NCBI GenBank assembly: GCA_044344255.1
Contig: JBIJDH010000009.1
Span: 32,001-96,000 of the forward strand
Source of the DNA: Myxococcota bacterium
GTDB lineage: Bacteria > Myxococcota_A > UBA796 > UBA2385
Reading direction: 5' to 3'
Length of the DNA stretch: 64,000 bases
Shown here: piece after piece, positions 8,583 through 18,875 of the stretch
Layout of the letters: each line of letters opens with the position of its first letter
Position numbering within the stretch: position 1 is the stretch's first letter
Notes under the pieces: model-generated
Databases searched by the model: none
The model's input: the letters and a program-made list of their open reading frames with translations, nothing else
What the model was told of the DNA's origin: nothing
Position numbers and translations under genes: made by a program

Positions 8583-9953
8583 TCACTCGAGGGTGGTGGG
8601 CACCGACCAGAGCGCGCCGTCGAGGCGCCAGAGGAACCGTCGGTCGCCACAGCGGCGCTCGGCGTCGATCCCCAACATCGCCACGAGCGCGGCCTGCTCC
8701 GGCCTGTCCAGCGACGGGGGCTCGACCTCTGGGGGCGGCGCTGCGGTCGAGCCTTGGGACGGGCCCCGCTCGTCGACCACCAGCTCACCGGTCTCGAGGG
8801 AGGCGCGCAGCCACCCGGCCTCGCGGAGCAGCCACAGGTGCCTCCCGTCCCAGGCTCCCTCGAGCGGAGGATCGGCCTCGGGGAGCAAGGCTGCGGGCAG
8901 GCTGTGGTGGGCGAGGGGCTCGCACTCCGCCGACAGGTGAGAGAGGGTCTCTCCGATGAGGGCTGCCCAGCCGGCCTCCCCGAGGGAGACGATCAGGTCG
9001 GCAGACAGCTCGGGCAGGCTCGGGCTCGCGGCGCCGGTCCGGAGGTCCCAGACACGCCCGCCGGGGCCGGCGAGGCGGTCATCGGCGAGGGTGGGGGAGG
9101 TGGGCACGAAGCCGTCCGCGCGGAGCTCCCCCTCGAAGGTGCGCAGCTCACCGGTCGACTCATCGAGGAGCAGCGGCGCGGGATCGAAGCCCACCGGCGA
9201 GAGATCGGCGCCCTCGGCGTAGGTGAGCACCCCGCCTGTGCGGGTGTCGATCAAGGCGAGCCCCTCCTCACAGCGGACGATGGCCCGCTGACCGTCGGCC
9301 GAGAAGCGGGCGCCATCGAGCTCGAGGGCGATCTCCACCGGCACGGGCAGACCGCCGGGCGGCAGGGCCCACTGGCCATCGCGGCTGAGCAGCAGCGCCG
9401 CGCCGCACGGCCCGGCGACCAGGCGCCGCACGTCACTGTTGAGGGAGCCGGCGGATTGGGGGCGCCCACCGGGGGACATCCGGTATAGGCGCTGCTCATC
9501 CGCCCAGATCAGGCCCGGCTGGTCGGTCCAGAGGCCCAGCAGGCCCTCCCGCGGCCCGATCGGCAAGCGCAGGGGCGGTGCGCCCTCTGCAGCGGGTAAC
9601 ACAATGTTATCCGCCCCCTTTCGCCAAGCGACGAGCCCTGCACCAAGCTGGGGCGCGCGGCCGATCCCGCTGATCGACCGCTCCCCGAGCAGCGAGCCGT
9701 CGGGGTCGAGGCGACGGAGGCGCAGGCCGGTGGGCCCCCCCGAGGTCAGCAGGGTCCAGCCCTCGGCCGTGGGCACGAGGCCCAGCACGGCCCCCGTCTC
9801 GACGAAGGTGGCGACCGATCCGCGGAGCAGGAACAGCCCCTCTTCGAAGGGCCAGCAGATCACGCCCTCCGCGGCGATCAGCGCGTCGGGGAGGCCGGGG
9901 GCGAGGAGGCGCGGACCGACGCCCGGGCCCCAGCCGAAGAACAGGCGGTTCAT
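8583..9953 (-). CDS. Hypothetical protein, probable beta-propeller
   Basis: Long ORF overlapping the upstream stop (ATGA); WD40-like ARFSADGQRAIV and RVWDLRTG segments. Confidence 0.55.
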   Translation of the reverse strand: MNRLFFGWGPGVGPRLLAPGLPDALIAAEGVICWPFEEGLFLLRGSVATFVETGAVLGLVPTAEGWTLLTSGGPTGLRLRRLDPDGSLLGERSISGIGRAPQLGAGLVAWRKGADNIVLPAAEGAPPLRLPIGPREGLLGLWTDQPGLIWADEQRLYRMSPGGRPQSAGSLNSDVRRLVAGPCGAALLLSRDGQWALPPGGLPVPVEIALELDGARFSADGQRAIVRCEEGLALIDTRTGGVLTYAEGADLSPVGFDPAPLLLDESTGELRTFEGELRADGFVPTSPTLADDRLAGPGGRVWDLRTGAASPSLPELSADLIVSLGEAGWAALIGETLSHLSAECEPLAHHSLPAALLPEADPPLEGAWDGRHLWLLREAGWLRASLETGELVVDERGPSQGSTAAPPPEVEPPSLDRPEQAALVAMLGIDAERRCGDRRFLWRLDGALWSVPTTLE

Positions 9954-11119
9954 GGCTTCCTCCCGAGGGCGACCACGTCGCCGTTCGCCAGCCCGACGTA
10001 GATGAAGCCGCGAGCGATCGCGGGCGCGCCGGTGATCGGAGAGATGAGGTCGAGCGTCCAGATCTCGCCGCCGTCGTCCTTGTCGAGGCGGTGCAGCCTC
10101 CCGTCGGCGTCGCCAACGTAGACGCCGGTGCGGGAGATCGCAGGGCTGCTGCTCCAGGCGTCCTCGTTGATCGCCGTCCAGGTGAGTGAGCCGCTGCCCA
10201 GGTCAATCGCCAGGAGTTGCCCACCCATGGTCGCCAGGTAGACCGCGTCGGCGAGGGCCGGGGCGGCGGCGGGGGCCGAAGGGGCCTGACGCGACCAGAG
10301 GCGGCTCCCATCCGAGGCGTTGAAGGCGGCGACGCCGCCCGGCCGGCCGTCCTTCTCGGCGTAGGCCGCCACCACCACCTGACCGTCCGTGACGGGGTGC
10401 TCGAAGCCGGGACCGGGGAGGGGCACCCGCCAGATCACCCCCGCGTGGGTGAGGCTCACGAGCTCCCCCCCTTCCGTGCTGACGAAGAGGTGCGTCCCAT
10501 CCGAGCAGCCGCCGTAGCGGGCCCCGGTGGACACGGGCACGGTCCAGCCGGTCTGGCCGTACACCACCCCGTCTTCGCCCACCCAGGCGAGCTCCTCACC
10601 CACCTCGACCGCCGCGCCGCGCGCCGGGGCTGCGGAGAGGAAGCGCTGCGCCGCCGAGCCTCGGCCCTCGTGCAGCAGGGCCGCGCCCCCCGAGATCAGC
10701 CCCACGGCCAGCCCGCGGCCTGTCAGCGCCACCGGCCCGCTCGGGCCGAGCGGGTTGGCCCAGCGCTCCACCCCATCGACGCCGAGCGCGTGGACCGAGG
10801 CGCCGCCGACCACGAACAGCGCGCCGCCCTTGATCGTGATGGGCTGACTCACCGGTCCGCCGGTGCGGAAGCGCCAGAGCGGGCTGGGAGAGTCCGTGGG
10901 GCCATCCTCCCCGAAAGACCGCCGCTGCTCGGACCAGGCGCCGCCTTCGATCTGCGCGGCGGCCACCACGACCGCTCGCCCATCCGTCGGGGCAGCCACG
11001 GCCACGGTCCGGCTCCGCGCCGGGCCGGTGGAGCAGGCGGCCAGGGACGCCAAAGAAGCCCAGGCAGCCAGGGCGGCGAAGGTCAGCAGGGACGAACAAG
11101 GTGCGGCAGGGGTGGACAA
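9950..11119 (-). CDS. PQQ-like (BamB-type) beta-propeller lipoprotein
   Basis: Probable TTG start at 11119, lipobox SLAAC, repeats LWRFRTGG / AAFNASDGSRLWS / LDKDDGGEIWT. Confidence 0.8.
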   Translation of the reverse strand: MSTPAAPCSSLLTFAALAAWASLASLAACSTGPARSRTVAVAAPTDGRAVVVAAAQIEGGAWSEQRRSFGEDGPTDSPSPLWRFRTGGPVSQPITIKGGALFVVGGASVHALGVDGVERWANPLGPSGPVALTGRGLAVGLISGGAALLHEGRGSAAQRFLSAAPARGAAVEVGEELAWVGEDGVVYGQTGWTVPVSTGARYGGCSDGTHLFVSTEGGELVSLTHAGVIWRVPLPGPGFEHPVTDGQVVVAAYAEKDGRPGGVAAFNASDGSRLWSRQAPSAPAAAPALADAVYLATMGGQLLAIDLGSGSLTWTAINEDAWSSSPAISRTGVYVGDADGRLHRLDKDDGGEIWTLDLISPITGAPAIARGFIYVGLANGDVVALGRKP

Positions 11120-11190
11120 GGGCGGAGCTCCGTCAAGGGCGCCGCCTAACCCCGGTGCCCGCCTGCCGCCGGACCGCTGACGTAGACCGC

Positions 11191-11220
11191 TTGACGCGGC
11201 ACCGGGCGGCGCGGTACCAA
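11191..11220 (+). promoter_or_regulatory. Candidate sigma70-type promoter for the BMC operon
   Basis: TTGACG-N18-TACCAA about 90 bp upstream of the first shell gene. Confidence 0.35.
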
Positions 11221-11306
11221 AGGCCACCCGACCGATGAGCCGGGCGGCGACCCCATGGTCGATGGACCCGTGGGACCGATGGATCTCTGGTTGAATGAGG
11301 TGCGGT

Positions 11307-11921
11307 TTGTCAGTCACGCTGCGTGGGTATGCCTTCCTCGACAGCCTCCAGCCGCAGCTCGCGGCCTTCACGGGCACCACGTGTCGCGGCTTCCTCCCCT
11401 TGGCGGGCCAGGCCTCGCTGTGGATCGAGACGGCCCCCGGCATGATCATCAACCGCGTCACCGACGTGGCCCTCAAGGCCACTCGCGCGGTGCCTGCGGT
11501 CCAAGTGGTGGAGCGGGCCTTCGGCCTCCTCGAGATCCACCACGACGACAAGGGAGAGGTGGTCTCGGCCGGGGAGGCGGTGCTCGCGTACCTCAACGTG
11601 AAGGAAGAGGATCGGGTCCGCCCCAAGGTGGTCTCCAATCAGATCATCCGCGCGGTCGAGCCCTACCAGGCCCAACTCATCAACCGCAACCGCAACGGCA
11701 TGATGCTCATCCCCGGGCAGAGCCTCTTCATCCTCGAGGTCGAGCCCGCCGCCTGGATCGTGGTCGCGGCGAACGAGGCGGAGAAGGCCGCGAACATCAA
11801 CCTGATCAACGTGCAGCCCTTCGGCGCCTTCGGGCGCCTCTGGATGGGCGGCTCCGAGTCCGAGATCGACAGCGCCCGCGACGCCGCGATCGCCGCGATC
11901 GAGGCCCTCTCGGCCCGCTGA
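11307..11921 (+). CDS. BMC-T double-stacking, circularly permuted shell trimer (CcmP/CsoS1D-like)
   Basis: TTG start after [16 protein letters not shown]...[13 protein letters not shown]...ANEAEKAA...GAFGRL; recognisably similar to H. ochraceum BMC-T2. Confidence 0.92.
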
Positions 11922-12033
11922 GCCCTGTCCTCGCGGGCGATTTCCCTCTGAATGATCTCCTGATTTCTGGTCTCCCGCTTTCACTCCGACCCCACAAGTT
12001 CCGATCCCACGAAGGATCAGATGGAGAGTTCAA

Positions 12034-12324
12034 ATGGCTGATGCACTCGGCATGATCGAGACGAAGGGCTTCGTCGCCATGGTCGAGGCCGCCGACGCGA
12101 TGGTCAAGGCGGCCCGTGTGGAGCTCGTCGGCTTCGAGAAGATCGGCGGTGGCTACGTCACCGCGATCGTCCGCGGCGACGTCGCCGCGGTCAAGGCCGC
12201 CACTGAGGCCGGCGCCCGCCAGGCCCAGCGGGTCGGTGAGCTCGTGAGCGTGCACGTCATCCCGCGCCCCCACGAGAACATCGACGAGGTCCTCCCGCTC
12301 GGCCGCACGCCCAAGAAGGCCTGA
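12034..12324 (+). CDS. BMC-H hexamer shell protein (PduA/EutM/CcmK family)
   Basis: ALGMIETKG...[10 protein letters not shown]...[11 protein letters not shown]...HVIPRPH. Confidence 0.97.
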
Positions 12325-12327
12325 CCG

Positions 12328-12699
12328 ATGAAGCTCGGGCGGATCGTCGGCACGGTCGTCGCGTCCCGCAAGGACGAGAAGATCGAGAGCCTCCGGCTGT
12401 ACGTGGTGCGCGACGTCTCCGTGGCGCTCGCCAACAAGGACAGCTTCGTGGTCGCGGTGGACGCGGTCGGGGCGGGGGTGGGCGAGCTCGTGCTCTACGC
12501 CAGCGGCTCGTCGGCCCGCCAGACGCGGGCCACCGAGGGCCGCCCGGTAGACGCGACCATCATGGCTATCGTGGACCAGGTTGACCTCGAGGGGCAGCTC
12601 GTCTACGACAAGCACACCGAGGCGAAGGCGGAGATCGCGCGCCGTAACGCCGCCTTCGAGGCGACCGCGGGGCAGACCGCCGGAGAGGGTGAGGGCTGA
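12328..12699 (+). CDS. BMC-P pentamer/vertex protein (EutN/CcmL family) with C-terminal extension
   Basis: [15 protein letters not shown]...[12 protein letters not shown]...GSSAR...[11 protein letters not shown]. Confidence 0.95.
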
Positions 12700-14111
12700 T
12701 GTCCACCGCCAACGTCGATATCACCGATGTCGTGGAGAAGGTCCTCGCCCGAATGAAGGGTGGAGACCTCGGCGCCCCGCGCACCGAGCTCCCCTCCCGC
12801 CCCCTCGGCGTGATGAAGTCGGTCGACGACGCCGTCGCCGCCGCGGGCATCGCCCAGCTCCAGCTCGTGGCGCTGCCGCTCGAGAAGCGGCGGGAGATCA
12901 TCGCCAACATCCGCAAGCGGGCCGCCGAGAACGTCCACACCATGGCCAAGATGGCGCATGAGGAGACGGGGCTCGGCCGGGTCGAAGACAAGATCAAGAA
13001 GAACCTCCTCGTCATCCACCGCACGCCTGGCCCCGAGATCCTCGAGCCCATCGCGATCACCGGCGATGACGGCCTCACGCTCATCGAGCGAGCCCCCTAT
13101 GGGGTCATCGGCTCGATCACGCCGAGCACGAACCCCACAGAGACCATCCTGAACAATGGGATCGGGATGGTCGCCGGTGGCAACGCGGTCGCCTTCAACG
13201 TCCACCCGGGCGCCAAGAAGACGAGCGCCTGGTGCATCGATCTCATCAACCGGGCCACCATCGAGGTGGGAGGGCCCGAGAACATCATGACCTGCGTGGG
13301 CGACCCCTCCATCGAGTCGGCCGGCCTGCTCATGAAGCACAAGTCCCTCCGCATGCTCGTGGTGACGGGCGGCGGGGCGGTGGTGCAAGCGGCCATGCGG
13401 AGCGGCAAGCGCGTCGTCGCAGGCGGCCCGGGCAACCCCCCAGTGGTGGTCGATGAGACGGCCGATCTCGATCGGGCGGCGCGGGAGATCCTGACCGGCG
13501 CCAGCATGGACAACAACATCATCTGCGTCGATGAGAAGGAGGTCTTCGCCGTCGAGAAGATCTTCGACTCGCTGATGGACAAGATGGAGGCGCTCGGCTG
13601 CGTGCGGGTGCGAAACCACCAGATCACCCGCCTCGAGAAGGTGGCGCTCACCCCCGACAAGGAGCACACCAATCGCGACATGGTGGGCAAGTCGGCACGA
13701 GAATTCCTGAAGCAGGCCGACATCCCCTTCAAGGGTGACCCGCGGCTCATCATCTGCGAGGTGCCCTTCGAGCACCCCTTCGTGCAGCACGAGCTGCTGA
13801 TGCCGATCCTGCCCTTCACCCGGGTCAAGGACGTGCATGAGGGCATCGACTTCGCCGTGAAGGCCGAGCATGGCTACGGCCACACGGCCAGCATGTACTC
13901 GCGCAACCTCGACAACCTGCACCGGATGGCCAAGGTCATCAACTGCTCGATATTCGTGAAGAACGCGAACCACTGCGCGGGCCTCGGCTACGGCGGAGAG
14001 GGCTACACGAGCTTCACCATCGCCTCACCGACGGGGGACGGGCTCACGACGGCCCGCACCTTCACGCGGGAGCGCCGCTGCACCCTGGCCGGCTACTTCC
14101 GGATCGTATGA
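12699..14111 (+). CDS. CoA-acylating aldehyde dehydrogenase (EutE/PduP family) with N-terminal encapsulation peptide
   Basis: [31 protein letters not shown] catalytic Cys, [16 protein letters not shown]-terminal amphipathic [13 protein letters not shown]. Confidence 0.95.
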
Positions 14112-14713
14112 GGCCCATGACCGAGTCCCCCGCGCTCGCGATGGTGGAGGTGGACTCGGTCGCCCGTGGGCTGCGCACCTTGGACGCCCTCGTCAAGAAG
14201 GCGCCGGTGCGGATCCTGGAGGCGAACCTCATCGAGCCGGGGCGCTTCCTGATCCTCTTCGCCGGCGGTGTCGGTGAGGTGGACGAGAGCTTCATCGAGG
14301 CCGTCGCCGTGGCGGCGGAGGAGCTCAGCGATCGACTCTTCCTGGCCGACGCGCACCCCGCGATCCTCCGCGGGCTTCGCGGATACCTCGATCTCCGGGG
14401 CGCAGACGACATGGACTGCCTCGCCGTGATCGAGGGGAGCCGAGTCGCCTCGACGCTTCGGGCGGTCGAGCGCTCGCTGAAGGAGGCCGATGTCAGCCTC
14501 GCCGGCCTCCGGGTGAGCGGAGGCCTCGGCGGGCGTGCCTACTACGTGGTCTTCGGGGCCCAGCATGACGTCGAGGCGGCGATCGAAGCCGGCAAGGCGA
14601 TCCTCGAAGAGGCGAGACAGCTGAAGAAGGTCGAGATCATCCCCCGCCCGCACCCCGAGATGGTGACGTGGCTGCTGCGTCCGCCGCCCTTCGCGGTGGC
14701 TCGGGAGGGCTGA
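14108..14713 (+). CDS. BMC-T single-layer shell trimer (PduT-like)
   Basis: ALAMVEVDSVARG...DALVKKAPV...PGRFLI...GLGGRAY...IIPRPH tandem BMC domains; start may be ATG 14117. Confidence 0.9.
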   Translation: MRPMTESPALAMVEVDSVARGLRTLDALVKKAPVRILEANLIEPGRFLILFAGGVGEVDESFIEAVAVAAEELSDRLFLADAHPAILRGLRGYLDLRGADDMDCLAVIEGSRVASTLRAVERSLKEADVSLAGLRVSGGLGGRAYYVVFGAQHDVEAAIEAGKAILEEARQLKKVEIIPRPHPEMVTWLLRPPPFAVAREG

Positions 14714-14991
14714 TGGAGCTGGCGAGAGTGCTGGGCCGCGTGGTCTGCACGGTGAAGTACGAGACGCTCACGGGCGTGCGCATGCTGGTCATCCAGCCCG
14801 TGGACGCCGCGGGGGCCGCTCAGGGCGAGCCGATCGTGGCGACCGATCCCCTCCAGGCGGGGCCGGGTGACCTCGTCTCCTGGGTGGGCGGCCGCGAGGC
14901 GGCGCTGACCCTGCCCAACACCTACGCTCCGGTGGACGCCTCGATCGTCGAGATCGTCGATCATGCGTGGTCGGACCGGAAGTACCTGTGA
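14713..14991 (+). CDS. BMC-P pentamer protein (second)
   Basis: MELARVLGRVVCTVK...DPLQAGPGDLV...PVDASIVEIVD; ATG overlaps upstream TGA. Confidence 0.92.
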   Translation: MELARVLGRVVCTVKYETLTGVRMLVIQPVDAAGAAQGEPIVATDPLQAGPGDLVSWVGGREAALTLPNTYAPVDASIVEIVDHAWSDRKYL

Positions 14992-15007
14992 ACCCCGGGA
15001 GGTCCCC

Positions 15008-15319
15008 GTGATCCTCTGTCGAGTCGTCGGCAACAGCGTCGCGACGGTGCGGCACCCCTGCTACGTCGGGCGGAGCGTGATGGTCGTCCGGCCCGTCCAG
15101 CCTGACGGCCACACGATCGCAGGCGACGAGTTCCTCGCCGTCGACGCCGTGCAGGCCGGCCCCGGAGACCTCATCCTCGCCTCGCGGGAGGGCAACACCG
15201 CCCGGCAGCTGCTCGGCACCGACAACGACCCCTTCCACGCCGTCATCCTCGGCGTGGTGGACGAGGTGAGCGACGAGACCCGCGGGATGCGGGGCACCCT
15301 CGGCGGGGGCGCGCCTTGA
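15008..15319 (+). CDS. BMC-P pentamer protein (third)
   Basis: GTG after GGAGG; ILCRVVGNSVAT...DAVQAGPGDLIL...EGNTAR...ILGVVD. Confidence 0.92.
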   Translation: MILCRVVGNSVATVRHPCYVGRSVMVVRPVQPDGHTIAGDEFLAVDAVQAGPGDLILASREGNTARQLLGTDNDPFHAVILGVVDEVSDETRGMRGTLGGGAP

Positions 15320-16098
15320 GCCTGCCCATCGACGAAGAGCAGCTTCGGACCGAGATCGTCGCCCGCTCCCACCAGCTCTCTGCCCGCGGCTGGGTGGCGA
15401 ACCACGACGGCAACCTCACCGCCCGGCTCGGCGGCGGGCGCACCCTGGCAACCCCCACCGCCGTGAACAAGGGCGACGTGCGGCCGGAGTGGCTGATCGT
15501 GCTCGACGAGTCGGGCAAGGTGATCTCCGGCACCCGCAAGCCCTTCGGCGAGCTGGTGCTGCACCGCGCGGCCTACGCGGCGCGGCCTGACATCGGCGTC
15601 GTCTTGCACGCGCACCCGCCGCACGCGACGGCCTTCGCCCTCGCCGGGCAGCCGATCGGCCACCCCTTCCTCGCCGAGGCGGTGGTGAGCCTCGGCCCTG
15701 AGCTGCCGCAGATCCCCTACCGGCGCCCCGGCAGCGAAGAGACCAGCCGCGAGCTGGCGGCCGCCCTCCAGCGCGCCGACGTCGTGATCCTCGAGGGGCA
15801 CGGGCTGCTCAGCGTCGGCGGCAGCTTCGAGCAGGCCTTCCTCCGGATGGAGCTGGTGGAGCACCTCGCCCGCTTGAGCTGGCTCGCCCGCCCCCTCGGC
15901 GGCGCCCGCCCCCTGCCCGAGGCCGACGTCCGCGCGCTCGCCGAGAAGGGCCGCCCCGCCTCCGCTCCCGACTGGAGCGGCGGCGCCCACGGCCCGGCCA
16001 GCAGCCCCTCGCTCGCTGCGGGCGCGCCGCCGCCCAGCCCGGCTCACCGGCCCGACGTGCGCTCCCTGGTCGAAGAGGCGATGCGCCGGGCGCGCTGA
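15316..16098 (+). CDS. Class II aldolase/adducin family protein (FucA-like) with C-terminal encapsulation peptide
   Basis: DGNLTAR, TPT, GELVLH, HAHPPHATAFA, LEGHG metal ligands; Pro/Ser linker then PDVRSLVEEAMRR. Confidence 0.92.
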   Translation: MSLPIDEEQLRTEIVARSHQLSARGWVANHDGNLTARLGGGRTLATPTAVNKGDVRPEWLIVLDESGKVISGTRKPFGELVLHRAAYAARPDIGVVLHAHPPHATAFALAGQPIGHPFLAEAVVSLGPELPQIPYRRPGSEETSRELAAALQRADVVILEGHGLLSVGGSFEQAFLRMELVEHLARLSWLARPLGGARPLPEADVRALAEKGRPASAPDWSGGAHGPASSPSLAAGAPPPSPAHRPDVRSLVEEAMRRAR

Positions 16099-16112
16099 GG
16101 TTGAGGCTACCC

Positions 16113-16844
16113 TCACTGCAGGGCGGCGAGGTTCGTGTACGGGCGGGGCGCGCGCCAGTGGATCGCGGCCGCGACGCCGTAGAGGGTGGTGGTGGCCGGC
16201 GAGACGCCGTAGTCGGTGACCCAGTCGGAGGTGGTGGAGAAGCTGTAGACCGTGCCGCCGTTACCGCCCGTGGAGCCCGTCGGGGTCGAAGCGGAGAAGC
16301 TGGTCTCGGTGGGCCCCATCACGGCGCCGGCGAAGAGGTCGCTGTACAGCCAGCGTTGGGCCTGAACGGCGCCACCGGCCAGGTTGCCCATGTAGCTCAC
16401 CACGACGTCGGCCTCGCCGTCGAGGTCGAGGTCGCCGAGGGACACCGCGAGGGCGGGGACGCCGTGGTTCGCCGCGTCGGTGGCCGAGAAGAAGGCGGTG
16501 GGGAGGCTCACCCCATCGATGACGAGCAGGCCAGGCTGGGGCGTGACGGCGGCCAGATCGGCCTCGACCATCCACGCGGCGAGGGCGCTGGCCACGAGCG
16601 CGTCATCGGAGGTGTCCCCCCAGAGGCCGTCGAGCGAGCCCTCGGCGAGGCGCGCGACACAGAGGCTCTTGGAGCCTCGCTCGTTCAAGGTGCTCAAACC
16701 GTCCGCGTCCGCACAAGCCACGCGTGTCGATGCGACACCCGAGGTGGAGCCGGTGAGGGGGCTCGGAGAGGCCTGGGCCACTGCCCCAACAGACACTGCG
16801 ACAAAAGCAACACAAGAAGCAGCACAAATTGTGAAGAGTCGCAT
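16113..16844 (-). CDS. Secreted hypothetical protein with one FG-GAP-like DxDxDG motif
   Basis: ATG at 16844 after GAGG; signal peptide ending AQA; LGDLDLDGEADVVVS. Confidence 0.65.
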   Translation of the reverse strand: MRLFTICAASCVAFVAVSVGAVAQASPSPLTGSTSGVASTRVACADADGLSTLNERGSKSLCVARLAEGSLDGLWGDTSDDALVASALAAWMVEADLAAVTPQPGLLVIDGVSLPTAFFSATDAANHGVPALAVSLGDLDLDGEADVVVSYMGNLAGGAVQAQRWLYSDLFAGAVMGPTETSFSASTPTGSTGGNGGTVYSFSTTSDWVTDYGVSPATTTLYGVAAAIHWRAPRPYTNLAALQ

Positions 16845-16879
16845 GGTGTCCTCGGTTTGTTTCGGGTACACCACACTAA

Positions 16880-16895
16880 TGCACGAGTCGTGCCA
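16880..16895 (-). promoter_or_regulatory. sigma54 (-24/-12) promoter
   Basis: Minus strand TGGCACGACTCGTGCA (TGGCAC-N5-GTGCA), about 35 bp upstream of ATG 16844. Confidence 0.7.
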
Positions 16896-16981
16896 GCCTT
16901 CCAGGTCCGGCGGCGGCCTGAGGACCGCCAAACACCTGCACAGCGCGCCTCTCTACGGCTGCTGTGCAGAACTGTTCCGAC

Positions 16982-17010
16982 CCGCGGCTCCGCGGCTCCG
17001 CGGCTCCGCG
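16982..17010. repeat. Short intergenic tandem repeat (CCGCGGCT, about 3.5 copies)
   Basis: ccgcggct ccgcggct ccgcggct ccgcg directly after the glpD stop. Confidence 0.75.
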
Positions 17011-17012
17011 AC

Positions 17013-18875
17013 TCAGCCTTCGACGGCTGGGGCCAACGGGCTCGCGGCGGCCCCCGCGGAGGGCTCCGCGGCGACCGGCGCGGCCTCCTCCTTCCAGCGG
17101 CGGCTCTTCGCGACCTCCGCCCGATAGGCGTCGGCGGAGCGTCGCCGCTCTTCGGGGCTCCAGCCGAGCAGGGCGGCCATCCGGTCGGCCACGAGGTCGA
17201 TCACGCCGAGGCCCTGGTCCGCTGCGCGGAAGAATATCTGGACGCGCCGCTCCATGAAGTCGGTCACGGTCTCCGCCATCTCTCGCTTCACAGCCCAGTC
17301 CACCTGGGCCATGATCTCCGGCCGCCCCGGCGCCAAGGGTTGGGTCAGCAGCTGCTCGGTGCGGGCGTAGGTGACGAGGTCGATGGCCAGCGTGCCGTAG
17401 CGGTCGGTGAGGTACTGGCAGGTGGCCTCGGGCAACAGCCCGCCGGCGGCCGCGACGACCTCCTTCACGATCACGCTGCCGTCGTCATTCTCCGGCCAGC
17501 CGATCGCACCGGGGAGGGGGAGCTGCTCGGTGTGGACCACGCGCAAGGGGGGCAGCGGGTGCCCAACGAGCTGGAGCCACTGCAGGGCCGCGCCGACCAC
17601 CTCGGCCCCCATCCGGCGGTGGGTGGTGAGCTTGCCGCCAGCGATGCTGATGAGCCCGTCGGCGTCGACGGCGATGACATGCTCTCGAGACACCTGAGAG
17701 GGTGAGACCCCCTCGGCGCGGATCAACGGCCGGAGGCCGGCCCAGGTCGAGGTGATGTGCTCGGGGCGGACGTCAGAGTCGGGGAAATAGGCGCGCACCG
17801 CCTCGAGCAGGTAGTCGATGTCGGAGCGAACGGCGCAGACGTCGCGGGGATCGCCCTCATAGTCTGTGTCGGTGGTGCCGATGTAGAGCTGGTCGCCCCA
17901 AGGGATGATGAACAGGACTCGGGCGTCGCGTGGATGGGTACAGACGACCACGTGCTCCAGTTGGATGCACGTCGCCGGGATGACGATGTGCACCCCCTTG
18001 GTCGTGCGGAGCTGGTGGCTCGGCGTTGGACCCATCGAGCGGATGAGGTCGGACCAGGGGCCAGTGGCGTTGACGACGGCGGCGGCGTGGATGTCGATGG
18101 TCCGCGGTTCGACCGAGGCGTCGAGCGTGTCTCGGGCCCGCACCCCACAGATGCGCCCGCCCTCATTTCGGAGCAGCCCCACCACCTTGCCGTAGGTCAG
18201 CAAGGCCGCGCCGTGCTTGGTGGCGTCCAACATGGTCTCGAGGGTGAGCCGCGCGTCGTCGGTCATGCAGTCCCAGTACAAGGGGGCGCCGTGGAGGCCT
18301 CGCTTCTGGATGGCGGGTGTGCAGGCGATGACCTTCTTCTTCGACAGGGTCCGGTGCCACTTGGGGGACCGGAAGAGCGCGAGGCCCTCGTAGACCATCA
18401 GCCCCACTCGGAGCTTGTTGATGCCTACCGGACTGTGATCGTAGATCGGGAACAAAAAGCCGAGCGGGCGCACGAGGTGGGGGGCGAGGTTCTGCATCAC
18501 CCGCCGCTCGCTCACGGACTCAAAGACGAGGGAGAAGTCTCCCTGCTCGAGGTACCGGAGGCCGCCGTGGATGAGCTTGGAGGAGCGGGAGGACGTGCCC
18601 GCGGCGACATCTTCGGCCTCGATCACCGCCACGCGGAGGCCCCGCAGGGCCGCGTCTCGGGCGGTGGCGGCGCCGATCACGCCGCCGCCGATGATCAGGA
18701 GGTCAAAGGTCTCCCGGCCGAGGCGCTCCCAGGTCCGCTCCCGGGGGGAGGGAGCGAAGGGGGCAACGGAGGCCGGAGACGTCGACCCGGCACGGGCAGA
18801 GACCGCTTGGGCAGCAGCTGCAGGAGAGGACACAGCATGGGCGGACACTGTGGCTCCAGGGGCACGAGGGATCAC
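17013..18875 (-). CDS. glpD: FAD-dependent glycerol-3-phosphate dehydrogenase
   Basis: DLLIIGGGVIG, GTSSRSSKLIHGGLRYLE, TDDARL, VNATGPWSD, GTTDT, WAGLRPL, GGKLTTHR; exact start uncertain. Confidence 0.92.
   Translation of the reverse strand: MIPRAPGATVSAHAVSSPAAAAQAVSARAGSTSPASVAPFAPSPRERTWERLGRETFDLLIIGGGVIGAATARDAALRGLRVAVIEAEDVAAGTSSRSSKLIHGGLRYLEQGDFSLVFESVSERRVMQNLAPHLVRPLGFLFPIYDHSPVGINKLRVGLMVYEGLALFRSPKWHRTLSKKKVIACTPAIQKRGLHGAPLYWDCMTDDARLTLETMLDATKHGAALLTYGKVVGLLRNEGGRICGVRARDTLDASVEPRTIDIHAAAVVNATGPWSDLIRSMGPTPSHQLRTTKGVHIVIPATCIQLEHVVVCTHPRDARVLFIIPWGDQLYIGTTDTDYEGDPRDVCAVRSDIDYLLEAVRAYFPDSDVRPEHITSTWAGLRPLIRAEGVSPSQVSREHVIAVDADGLISIAGGKLTTHRRMGAEVVGAALQWLQLVGHPLPPLRVVHTEQLPLPGAIGWPENDDGSVIVKEVVAAAGGLLPEATCQYLTDRYGTLAIDLVTYARTEQLLTQPLAPGRPEIMAQVDWAVKREMAETVTDFMERRVQIFFRAADQGLGVIDLVADRMAALLGWSPEERRRSADAYRAEVAKSRRWKEEAAPVAAEPSAGAAASPLAPAVEG

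Follow-up and report, generated by a model that had tools for sequence, protein, structure and literature searches.

A type II HO microcompartment operon in a Myxococcota genome, with a tagged deoxyribose-phosphate aldolase as candidate cargo

An eight-gene microcompartment operon of the HO family

We analysed a window of 64,000 nt (the whole stretch of DNA examined) on contig C64 (JBIJDH010000009.1) of a Myxococcota genome, G000, which comprises 8.18 Mb and is 95% complete. The window carries an operon for a bacterial microcompartment (BMC), made of eight open reading frames (ORFs), all on the + strand, for BMC-Tdp, BMC-H, BMC-P, an aldehyde dehydrogenase (AldDH), BMC-Ts, two further BMC-P and a class II aldolase, in that order; all eight products exceed their Pfam cut-offs (Table 1). 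A sequence-only reading of the window had named these co-directional genes in the same order and described them as mostly coupled. Indeed, four of the seven junctions overlap (−1, −4, −1 and −4 bp, with the BMC-Ts start at 14108), two others measure only 3 and 16 bp, and one spans 112 bp. A scan of positions 10900-17000 found neither a sigma-70-like promoter nor a + strand terminator, and the eight genes presumably form a single transcript. In DNA run X5, which stems from another study, three overlapping contigs together cover the entire operon with few differences, one of them spanning from the AldDH to the aldolase, indicating that the joined gene order is not a mis-assembly. Contigs of RNA runs X17, X18 and X20 cover some segments of the operon, yet they likewise match scattered stretches of the 20 kb that follow and, being contigs only, are no evidence of operon-specific transcription. 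The AldDH scores 640 bits against PRK15398, the acylating BMC subfamily (cut-off 403), and its Cys276 and His395 are the presumed catalytic residues.

The top PDB matches of three shell proteins (BMC-Tdp, BMC-H and the first BMC-P) are structures from Haliangium ochraceum (HO), in agreement with the HO-type assignment of the sequence-only reading. The BMC-Ts scores higher against PduT (96 bits) than against Hoch_5812 (72 bits for the HO structure 5DIH), and its pore cysteine is absent. The sole further shell gene of the genome stands alone on another contig (C19:18641-19285) and encodes a satellite BMC-Tdp, whose best match is 5V76, which we take to be Hoch_3341, followed by CcmP. Judged by best matches rather than a tree, the two Tdp proteins thus belong to different clades, the main one Hoch_5816-like and the satellite Hoch_3341/CcmP-like. 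The satellite gene (L244) sits upstream of genes that, by their motifs, we take to be thiolase-like and 3-hydroxyacyl-CoA dehydrogenase-like.

Sutter et al. (2021, PMC8217296, Supplementary Data 2) catalogued 41 HO loci, of which 11 are type II. In their description of type II, everything lies in the main locus save a satellite Tdp, and the aldolase, which in some cases bears a C-terminal peptide, is in the main locus in 5 of the 11. The genome agrees with this type in content and in layout: one BMC-H, one BMC-Ts, a triplet of pentamers (BMC-P) within the operon, a main Tdp in the window and a single satellite Tdp on C19, an AldDH with a predicted N-terminal encapsulation peptide and a main-locus pfam00596 aldolase with a predicted C-terminal one. 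Comparing content, as opposed to gene order, we found no difference, and the sections of PMC8217296 on type II mention neither a second tailed aldolase nor an altered phosphate pocket (see below). We conclude that the operon is the eight-gene locus of an already catalogued type II HO microcompartment.

The closest solved Tdp, H and P proteins are those of the type I organelle of H. ochraceum (5V74, 5DJB, 5V75, 5V76 and 5DIH), in which 5V74 is the pentamer Hoch_5814, and two pentamers, including Hoch_4426, plus the aldolase form a satellite (PMC8217296). In the window these parts are joined. The sequence-only reading had described this split arrangement correctly, and treated the joined operon as new, a fused arrangement of both loci. 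Its tag for the H. ochraceum aldolase, Hoch_4427, turned up in no paper of our literature search. The reading had itself allowed that the novelty would fall if the joined form were common and catalogued, which is the case; moreover, Sutter et al. interpret type I as a fission of the type II form (PMC8217296). A novel fusion of two HO loci is therefore ruled out by the catalogued type II form and by its frequency in relatives.

Other organelle types fit less closely. The ACI BMC of Acidobacteriota shares with the window a pentamer triplet and a class II aldolase with a C-terminal peptide, but its AldDH is encoded on a satellite and its locus includes a hydroxyacid dehydrogenase (PMC8217296). 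The nearest ESM Atlas clusters to the operon aldolase are mostly Acidobacteriota class II aldolases, possibly ACI proteins. As to the EUT type, no EutB and no EutL-type PF00936 match were found in the genome. PVM and PVM-like loci are marked by a phosphotransacylase (PTAC) and an alcohol dehydrogenase in the locus, together with entry genes for fucose or rhamnose, a combination that was not found here.

In this lineage the joined form is nothing unusual. Among the best 80 of at least 448 confirmed aldolase loci, the complete eight-gene order is present in 11, another 12 carry the seven upstream genes plus an aldolase no more than 3 kb away, and 12 further ones are partial but adjacent; 21 are P-P-aldolase satellites resembling type I, 16 have no BMC gene upstream within the retrieved DNA, and 8 fall into other classes. 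Pentamer genes occur in 50 of 60 relatives, and the operon-type aldolase in 46 of these 50 and none of the 10 pentamer-negative ones (hand count); the last pentamer lies directly upstream of the aldolase, within 150 bp, in 28 of the 60 relatives (from 39 genomes with both on one contig). We also compared 111 genomes of the phylum, each at least 90% complete, 44 with pentamers (BMC-positive) and 67 without (BMC-negative). The operon aldolase clade (E 1e-45) was detected in 38 of the 44 and in none of the 67.

The closest aldolase loci come from metagenome-assembled genomes whose labels are mixed: many read Myxococcota or Deltaproteobacteria, and many others name, implausibly, Enterobacterales or further proteobacteria. 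Half or more of the sampled words were present in 16 DNA runs, all of them metagenomes of lake, river or freshwater origin, and two of these runs may be the source of the window. A hidden cargo gene between the last pentamer and the aldolase was discarded, as the inserts vary by locus and no enzyme family recurs widely among those listed. Genes on the opposite strand that are ComEA-like, ComEC-like or for lipoproteins often follow the aldolase (27 of the best 80 loci; L001, L005, L008, L011, L016, L017, L020 and others), and the host has ComEC-like and lipoprotein genes on C36; the adjacency could reflect mere synteny or a connection with DNA uptake. Eight genomes of the phylum (G079, G096, G100, G102, G115, G119, G127 and G132) each contain seven pentamer genes, which suggests more than one BMC type per genome.

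Table 1. Features of the operon (window positions) and the second class II aldolase gene of the genome
Feature	Coordinates	Strand	Evidence
BMC-Tdp shell protein, Hoch_5816 counterpart	11307..11921	+	TTG start; PF00936; top PDB match HO-5816, E 1.6e-87
BMC-H hexamer shell protein, Hoch_5815 counterpart	12034..12324	+	PF00936; top natural PDB match HO-5815/5DJB, E 1.7e-45
BMC-P pentamer 1, Hoch_5814 counterpart	12328..12699	+	PF03319; top PDB match 5V74 pentamer, E 4.5e-27
CoA-acylating AldDH	12699..14111	+	Passes PRK15398; top PDB matches 4C3S, 5JFL; Cys276, His395
Predicted N-terminal encapsulation peptide of AldDH, aa 7-22	12717..12764	+	Targeting-helix profile, rank 1 of 4.48 million windows
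BMC-Ts shell protein	14108..14713 (alternative start 14117)	+	PF00936 in two stretches; pore motif without cysteine
BMC-P pentamer 2	14713..14991	+	PF03319
BMC-P pentamer 3	15008..15319	+	GTG start; PF03319
Class II aldolase-fold enzyme	15316..16098	+	PF00596; no NCBIfam cut-off reached; residue table; model and fold search
Predicted C-terminal encapsulation helix of operon aldolase, aa 248-259	16057..16092	+	AlphaFold model; tails conserved in related loci; profile score 11.4
Paralogue class II aldolase	G000:C26:165194-166120	minus	Genome's only other PF00596 protein

The operon is flanked by a divergent gene for a PQQ-type beta-propeller lipoprotein-like product (window 9950-11200, minus) and by a convergent one for a 244-aa protein without Pfam or NCBIfam match (16113-16847, minus). 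A short tandem repeat with an 8-base unit follows (16980-17010), whose copy number is different in run X5, and then, 0.9 kb 3' of the operon, a GlpD-like glycerol-3-phosphate dehydrogenase gene (17013-18875, minus), which we dismissed as a functional partner because it is not recurrent beside related loci.

A tagged deoxyribose-phosphate aldolase outside the operon

We built a targeting-helix profile from 25 AldDH N-termini of other genomes and ran it over 12,719 candidate ORFs, or 4.48 million windows of sequence. The highest score was that of the operon AldDH (30.5), followed by the N-terminus of a deoxyribose-phosphate aldolase (DERA; 21.7) encoded at C46:10146-11000 on the minus strand, directly upstream of a thymidine phosphorylase gene (the pair spans C46:8917-11000, L086). 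The DERA scores 262 bits against TIGR00126 (cut-off 117) and keeps the catalytic residues D102, K167 and K201, and its neighbour passes PRK05820.

The helix follows the microcompartment among relatives. We retrieved 40 DERA-type loci, of which 30 belong to BMC-positive and 10 to BMC-negative genomes, and one gave no match; with a threshold of 9.6, the 99th percentile of random stretches, the helix was detected in 26 of 30 BMC-positive versus 3 of 9 BMC-negative relatives. Of the 30 best DERA loci of the phylum, all from BMC-positive genomes partly shared with the set of relatives, 25 exceeded the threshold, and in one the best-scoring window was not the terminal helix. Across the phylum set, a DERA match was obtained for 43 of the 44 BMC-positive and 21 of the 67 BMC-negative genomes, and it extended into the N-terminal extension in 41 of those 43 versus 2 of those 21 (hand counts). 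Tagged DERA genes directly follow a P-P-aldolase satellite in 5 of the best 80 aldolase loci, and thymidine phosphorylase and DeoB genes adjoin DERA in 25 and 15, respectively, of the 30 retrieved BMC-positive loci. A stretch with four cysteines separates the DERA helix from the core in many relatives outside the class.

A search of relatives with PF01791 returned top matches that, by their motifs, we take to resemble class I fructose-bisphosphate aldolase, and 29 of the 30 loci (L092-L120) were set aside. Locus L121 (G046:C12:78000-97000), from the sole BMC-positive genome sampled in its family, is SPU3-like, and contains a triosephosphate isomerase gene, an RpiB-DERA fusion, an H-P-AldDH-Ts-P-P-Tdp block and an EutB/EutL ethanolamine module. 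RpiB-DERA fusions are a mark of SPU3 (PMC11585597). This locus shares the H-P-AldDH-Ts-P-P order with the window; the window AldDH shares 54% identity with that of G046 and 50-62% with its counterparts in five other Myxococcota loci, values that do not separate the types.

These observations agree with published work on related organelles. Sutter et al. (2021, PMC8217296) pointed to pfam01791 enzymes with a tag that some HO genomes encode elsewhere, and suggested a role in the breakdown of nucleic acids. According to Dwyer et al. (2024, PMC11585597), an SPU6 DERA is active on deoxyribose-5-phosphate, and its extension is missing from non-BMC DERAs. SPU metabolosomes, especially SPU5, resemble this genome in their pentamer triplet, Tdp, N-tagged AldDH nearest to that of HO, C-tagged class II aldolase, lack of RpiB in the locus and DERA with an N-terminal extension (PMC8217296, PMC11585597), which is here amphipathic. 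Conversely, the operon contains neither PduS nor PTAC, its DERA lies outside the locus, and there is a satellite Tdp, whereas SPU5 has no satellite loci (PMC8217296). Most SPU subtypes, though not SPU5, have an RpiB with an encapsulation peptide; the single RpiB of the genome, of 147 aa, has no extension and adjoins a glyA-like gene.

We consider, with moderate confidence, that this type II HO organelle is a dispersed, SPU-like sugar-phosphate metabolosome for the deoxyribose of scavenged DNA. From gene content, residues and co-occurrence we infer packaging, flux and substrates as follows. A cytosolic phosphorylase and a mutase would yield deoxyribose-5-phosphate, which would enter through gated Tdp pores; the encapsulated DERA would split it into glyceraldehyde-3-phosphate and acetaldehyde, and the AldDH would trap the acetaldehyde as acetyl-CoA. 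The operon aldolase would probably be co-packaged as a second source of aldehyde. Pathway searches covered a genome that is 95% complete, so that genes not found in it are not proven absent. They detected no PduL, AckA or stand-alone Pta, the single Pta match falling in a malic-enzyme-like protein, whose C-terminal domain it is, and no alcohol dehydrogenase with a targeting helix. Because neither PduL nor a helix-tagged alcohol dehydrogenase was found, the acetyl-CoA would leave through Tdp, an exit suggested by Dwyer et al. (2024, PMC11585597) where PTAC is absent.

Several points weigh against this deoxyribose model. The DERA gene lies on another contig, C46, and the model leaves unexplained why a class II aldolase, rather than DERA, stays linked to the pentamers. 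The helix profile yields false positives, MoxR-like tails taking ranks 3 and 7 in the terminal scan, and the DERA helix is retained in three of the nine BMC-negative relatives (G017, G040 and G045; 83, 96 and 78% complete). The cut-off for the extension (query position 55) was set after the data had been seen, kin are not independent, and some BMC-positive genomes carry other BMC types. DeoB was not found in the genome, leaving the mutase step to unassigned phosphohexomutase-like genes, and neither was a route for recycling NAD+ or CoA. Hydrophobic moment could not tell the candidate helices apart from random tails, with three of the four below the 90th percentile.

Two class II aldolases and the competing explanations

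The AlphaFold model of the operon aldolase (pLDDT 91.8) has a class II fold, a low-confidence linker and the terminal helix, which ranks 16 of 12,719 tails on the helix profile. The best family, sequence and fold matches are to YgbL/OtnC, then to DrdA and FucA (25-32% identity), with DrdA (6BTD/6BTG; PMC6079011) as the second PDB match by sequence and the third by fold; identity is 26% to FucA, 19% to RhaD and 26-27% to E. coli Ald2. We tabulated its residues in 59 relatives using the numbering of E. coli FucA. E73, H92 and H94 are kept in all 59 and H155 in 55, and the window protein contains the three metal histidines and the catalytic Glu, suggesting that it is probably an active enzyme. 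The phosphate pocket departs from that of FucA, in which N29, T43, G44, S71 and S72 bind the phosphate (PMC11841055): the window protein keeps N29 and T43 but has G44 changed to A, S71 to F and S72 to G. Across the relatives, G44 is replaced by Ala in 53 of 59, S71 by Phe in 56 and by Met in 3, and T26 in all 59 by a His that might make up for the lost phosphate contacts. Given that the pocket is altered across the clade, a standard sugar 1-phosphate substrate should not be assumed.

The sequence-only reading had made this aldolase and the AldDH the core cargo, with the aldolase cleaving a sugar phosphate. A targeting-like helix on both enzymes speaks for the pair, yet that they form the whole core is doubtful, the signal of the distant DERA being stronger; the departure of the pocket from FucA makes cleavage of a standard sugar 1-phosphate by the aldolase doubtful as well.

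The paralogue (Table 1) has a cysteine-containing linker and an amphipathic-looking C-terminal tail, conserved in the 20 relatives examined; on the AldDH helix profile the tail is weak (rank 100). It is conserved at 58-80% across the order (loci L161-L190). Among the relatives it occurs in 44 of the 50 BMC-positive and 3 of the 10 BMC-negative ones; within the class, a copy of at least 51% identity is present in all 16 BMC-positive genomes and in none of the 5 BMC-negative ones. A metagenome scan with it as query gave seven loci. A gene that, by its motif, we take to be glycerol-3-phosphate dehydrogenase-like lies near the paralogue in 15 of 30 loci. A quick tree with seven E. coli references, which carries long-branch warnings and omits 21 of 80 operon-type and 10 of 30 paralogue loci (ORF filter), placed the paralogue as sister to the operon aldolase clade and grouped neither with FucA/Ald2. 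No such aldolase was found in the HO description of PMC8217296, in the sections covering that type, and the paralogue query had no match in several HO-bearing families outside the class. We regard the paralogue as a candidate cargo and no more.

Either class II aldolase could instead be the signature enzyme of an encapsulated dihydroxyacetone phosphate (DHAP) shunt, converting 5-deoxyribulose-1-phosphate or methylthioribulose-1-phosphate (formed via MtnP and MtnA) into DHAP and acetaldehyde or methylthioacetaldehyde for the AldDH, a route compatible with that of DERA. Such shunts are known with DrdA or Ald2 (PMC6079011, PMC10986504). The genome contains MtnP, above its cut-off, and two MtnA paralogues (C59:23234-24304 and C29:70415-71488), whereas MtnB and MtnD were not found in it and neither PF00596 protein reaches the MtnB cut-off, so that the fate of methylthioribulose-1-phosphate is unexplained here. 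Together with the rank of DrdA among the PDB matches and the restriction of the operon aldolase clade to genomes with BMC genes, this makes the shunt worth considering, but we judge it rather unlikely. MtnA is nearly universal (59 of 61 genomes, including 9 of 10 BMC-negative ones), so its co-occurrence with BMC is uninformative; neither aldolase is adjoined by mtnP or mtnA, Ald2 is no closer than FucA in identity and groups with neither clade, and the phosphate-pocket residues of the operon enzyme are changed. A wider version for the HO organelle of this uncultured myxococcal class, in which DERA and both sister aldolases, three enzymes tagged at three separate loci, would feed one aldehyde trap, DERA serving the deoxyribose of DNA and the aldolases the 5-deoxy- or methylthio-pentose phosphates derived from S-adenosylmethionine by-products, seems unlikely.

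The changed phosphate pocket, with three of five FucA phosphate-binding residues altered in the window protein and the S71 and G44 changes clade-wide, would also fit an operon enzyme that is a metal-dependent decarboxylase, an aldolase acting on a non-phosphorylated substrate or a scaffold subunit of weak activity, leaving cleavage to the better conserved paralogue; its best matches, to the OtnC/YgbL decarboxylase, point the same way. We nevertheless think this improbable. The conserved metal ligands and Glu73 make a dead enzyme unlikely, the invariant His might offset the lost contacts, and the paralogue query gave no match in several HO-bearing families. The OtnK, OtnI and LtnD homologues of the tetronate pathway were not found in the genome, and that pathway was discarded, as was the ethanolamine pathway for want of the entry gene EutB. 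A PVM-like organelle that turns fuculose-1-phosphate or rhamnulose-1-phosphate into lactaldehyde is very improbable, even though homologues of the aldolase are often named L-fuculose-phosphate aldolase automatically and the top PDB match of the AldDH is 4C3S, which we take to come from C. phytofermentans. The fucose and rhamnose pathway was rejected because fucose isomerase, RhaA, FucU and RhaD were not found in the genome; neither was PduL, the sole FucK/RhaB match is presumably, by its motifs, glycerol kinase-like, identity of the aldolase to FucA and RhaD is low, and the shell proteins match HO.

Meaning for the HO organelle

Microcompartment structure and engineering are studied mainly on the HO shell, whose function Sutter et al. 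(2021, PMC8217296) called enigmatic. Our literature search, in which most matches were judged by title and the opening of the abstract, found no paper that resolves the question. Being catalogued and common, the joined operon contributes little to it, and the link of the HO organelle to deoxyribose and DNA is an already published proposal (Sutter et al. 2021, PMC8217296). What is new here is a short list of candidate cargo (the AldDH, a tagged DERA and two class II aldolases) and phylum-wide co-occurrence counts, together with the caution that the operon aldolase should not be taken as FucA-like. If all three tagged enzymes did feed one aldehyde trap, this would place a DHAP shunt inside a microcompartment, reveal a class II aldolase of new specificity and identify the natural role of the engineered BMC shell in widest use. 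The deoxyribose pathway, if true, would be widespread in freshwater myxobacteria, given that most relatives carry pentamers and that host DNA occurs in lake and river metagenomes.

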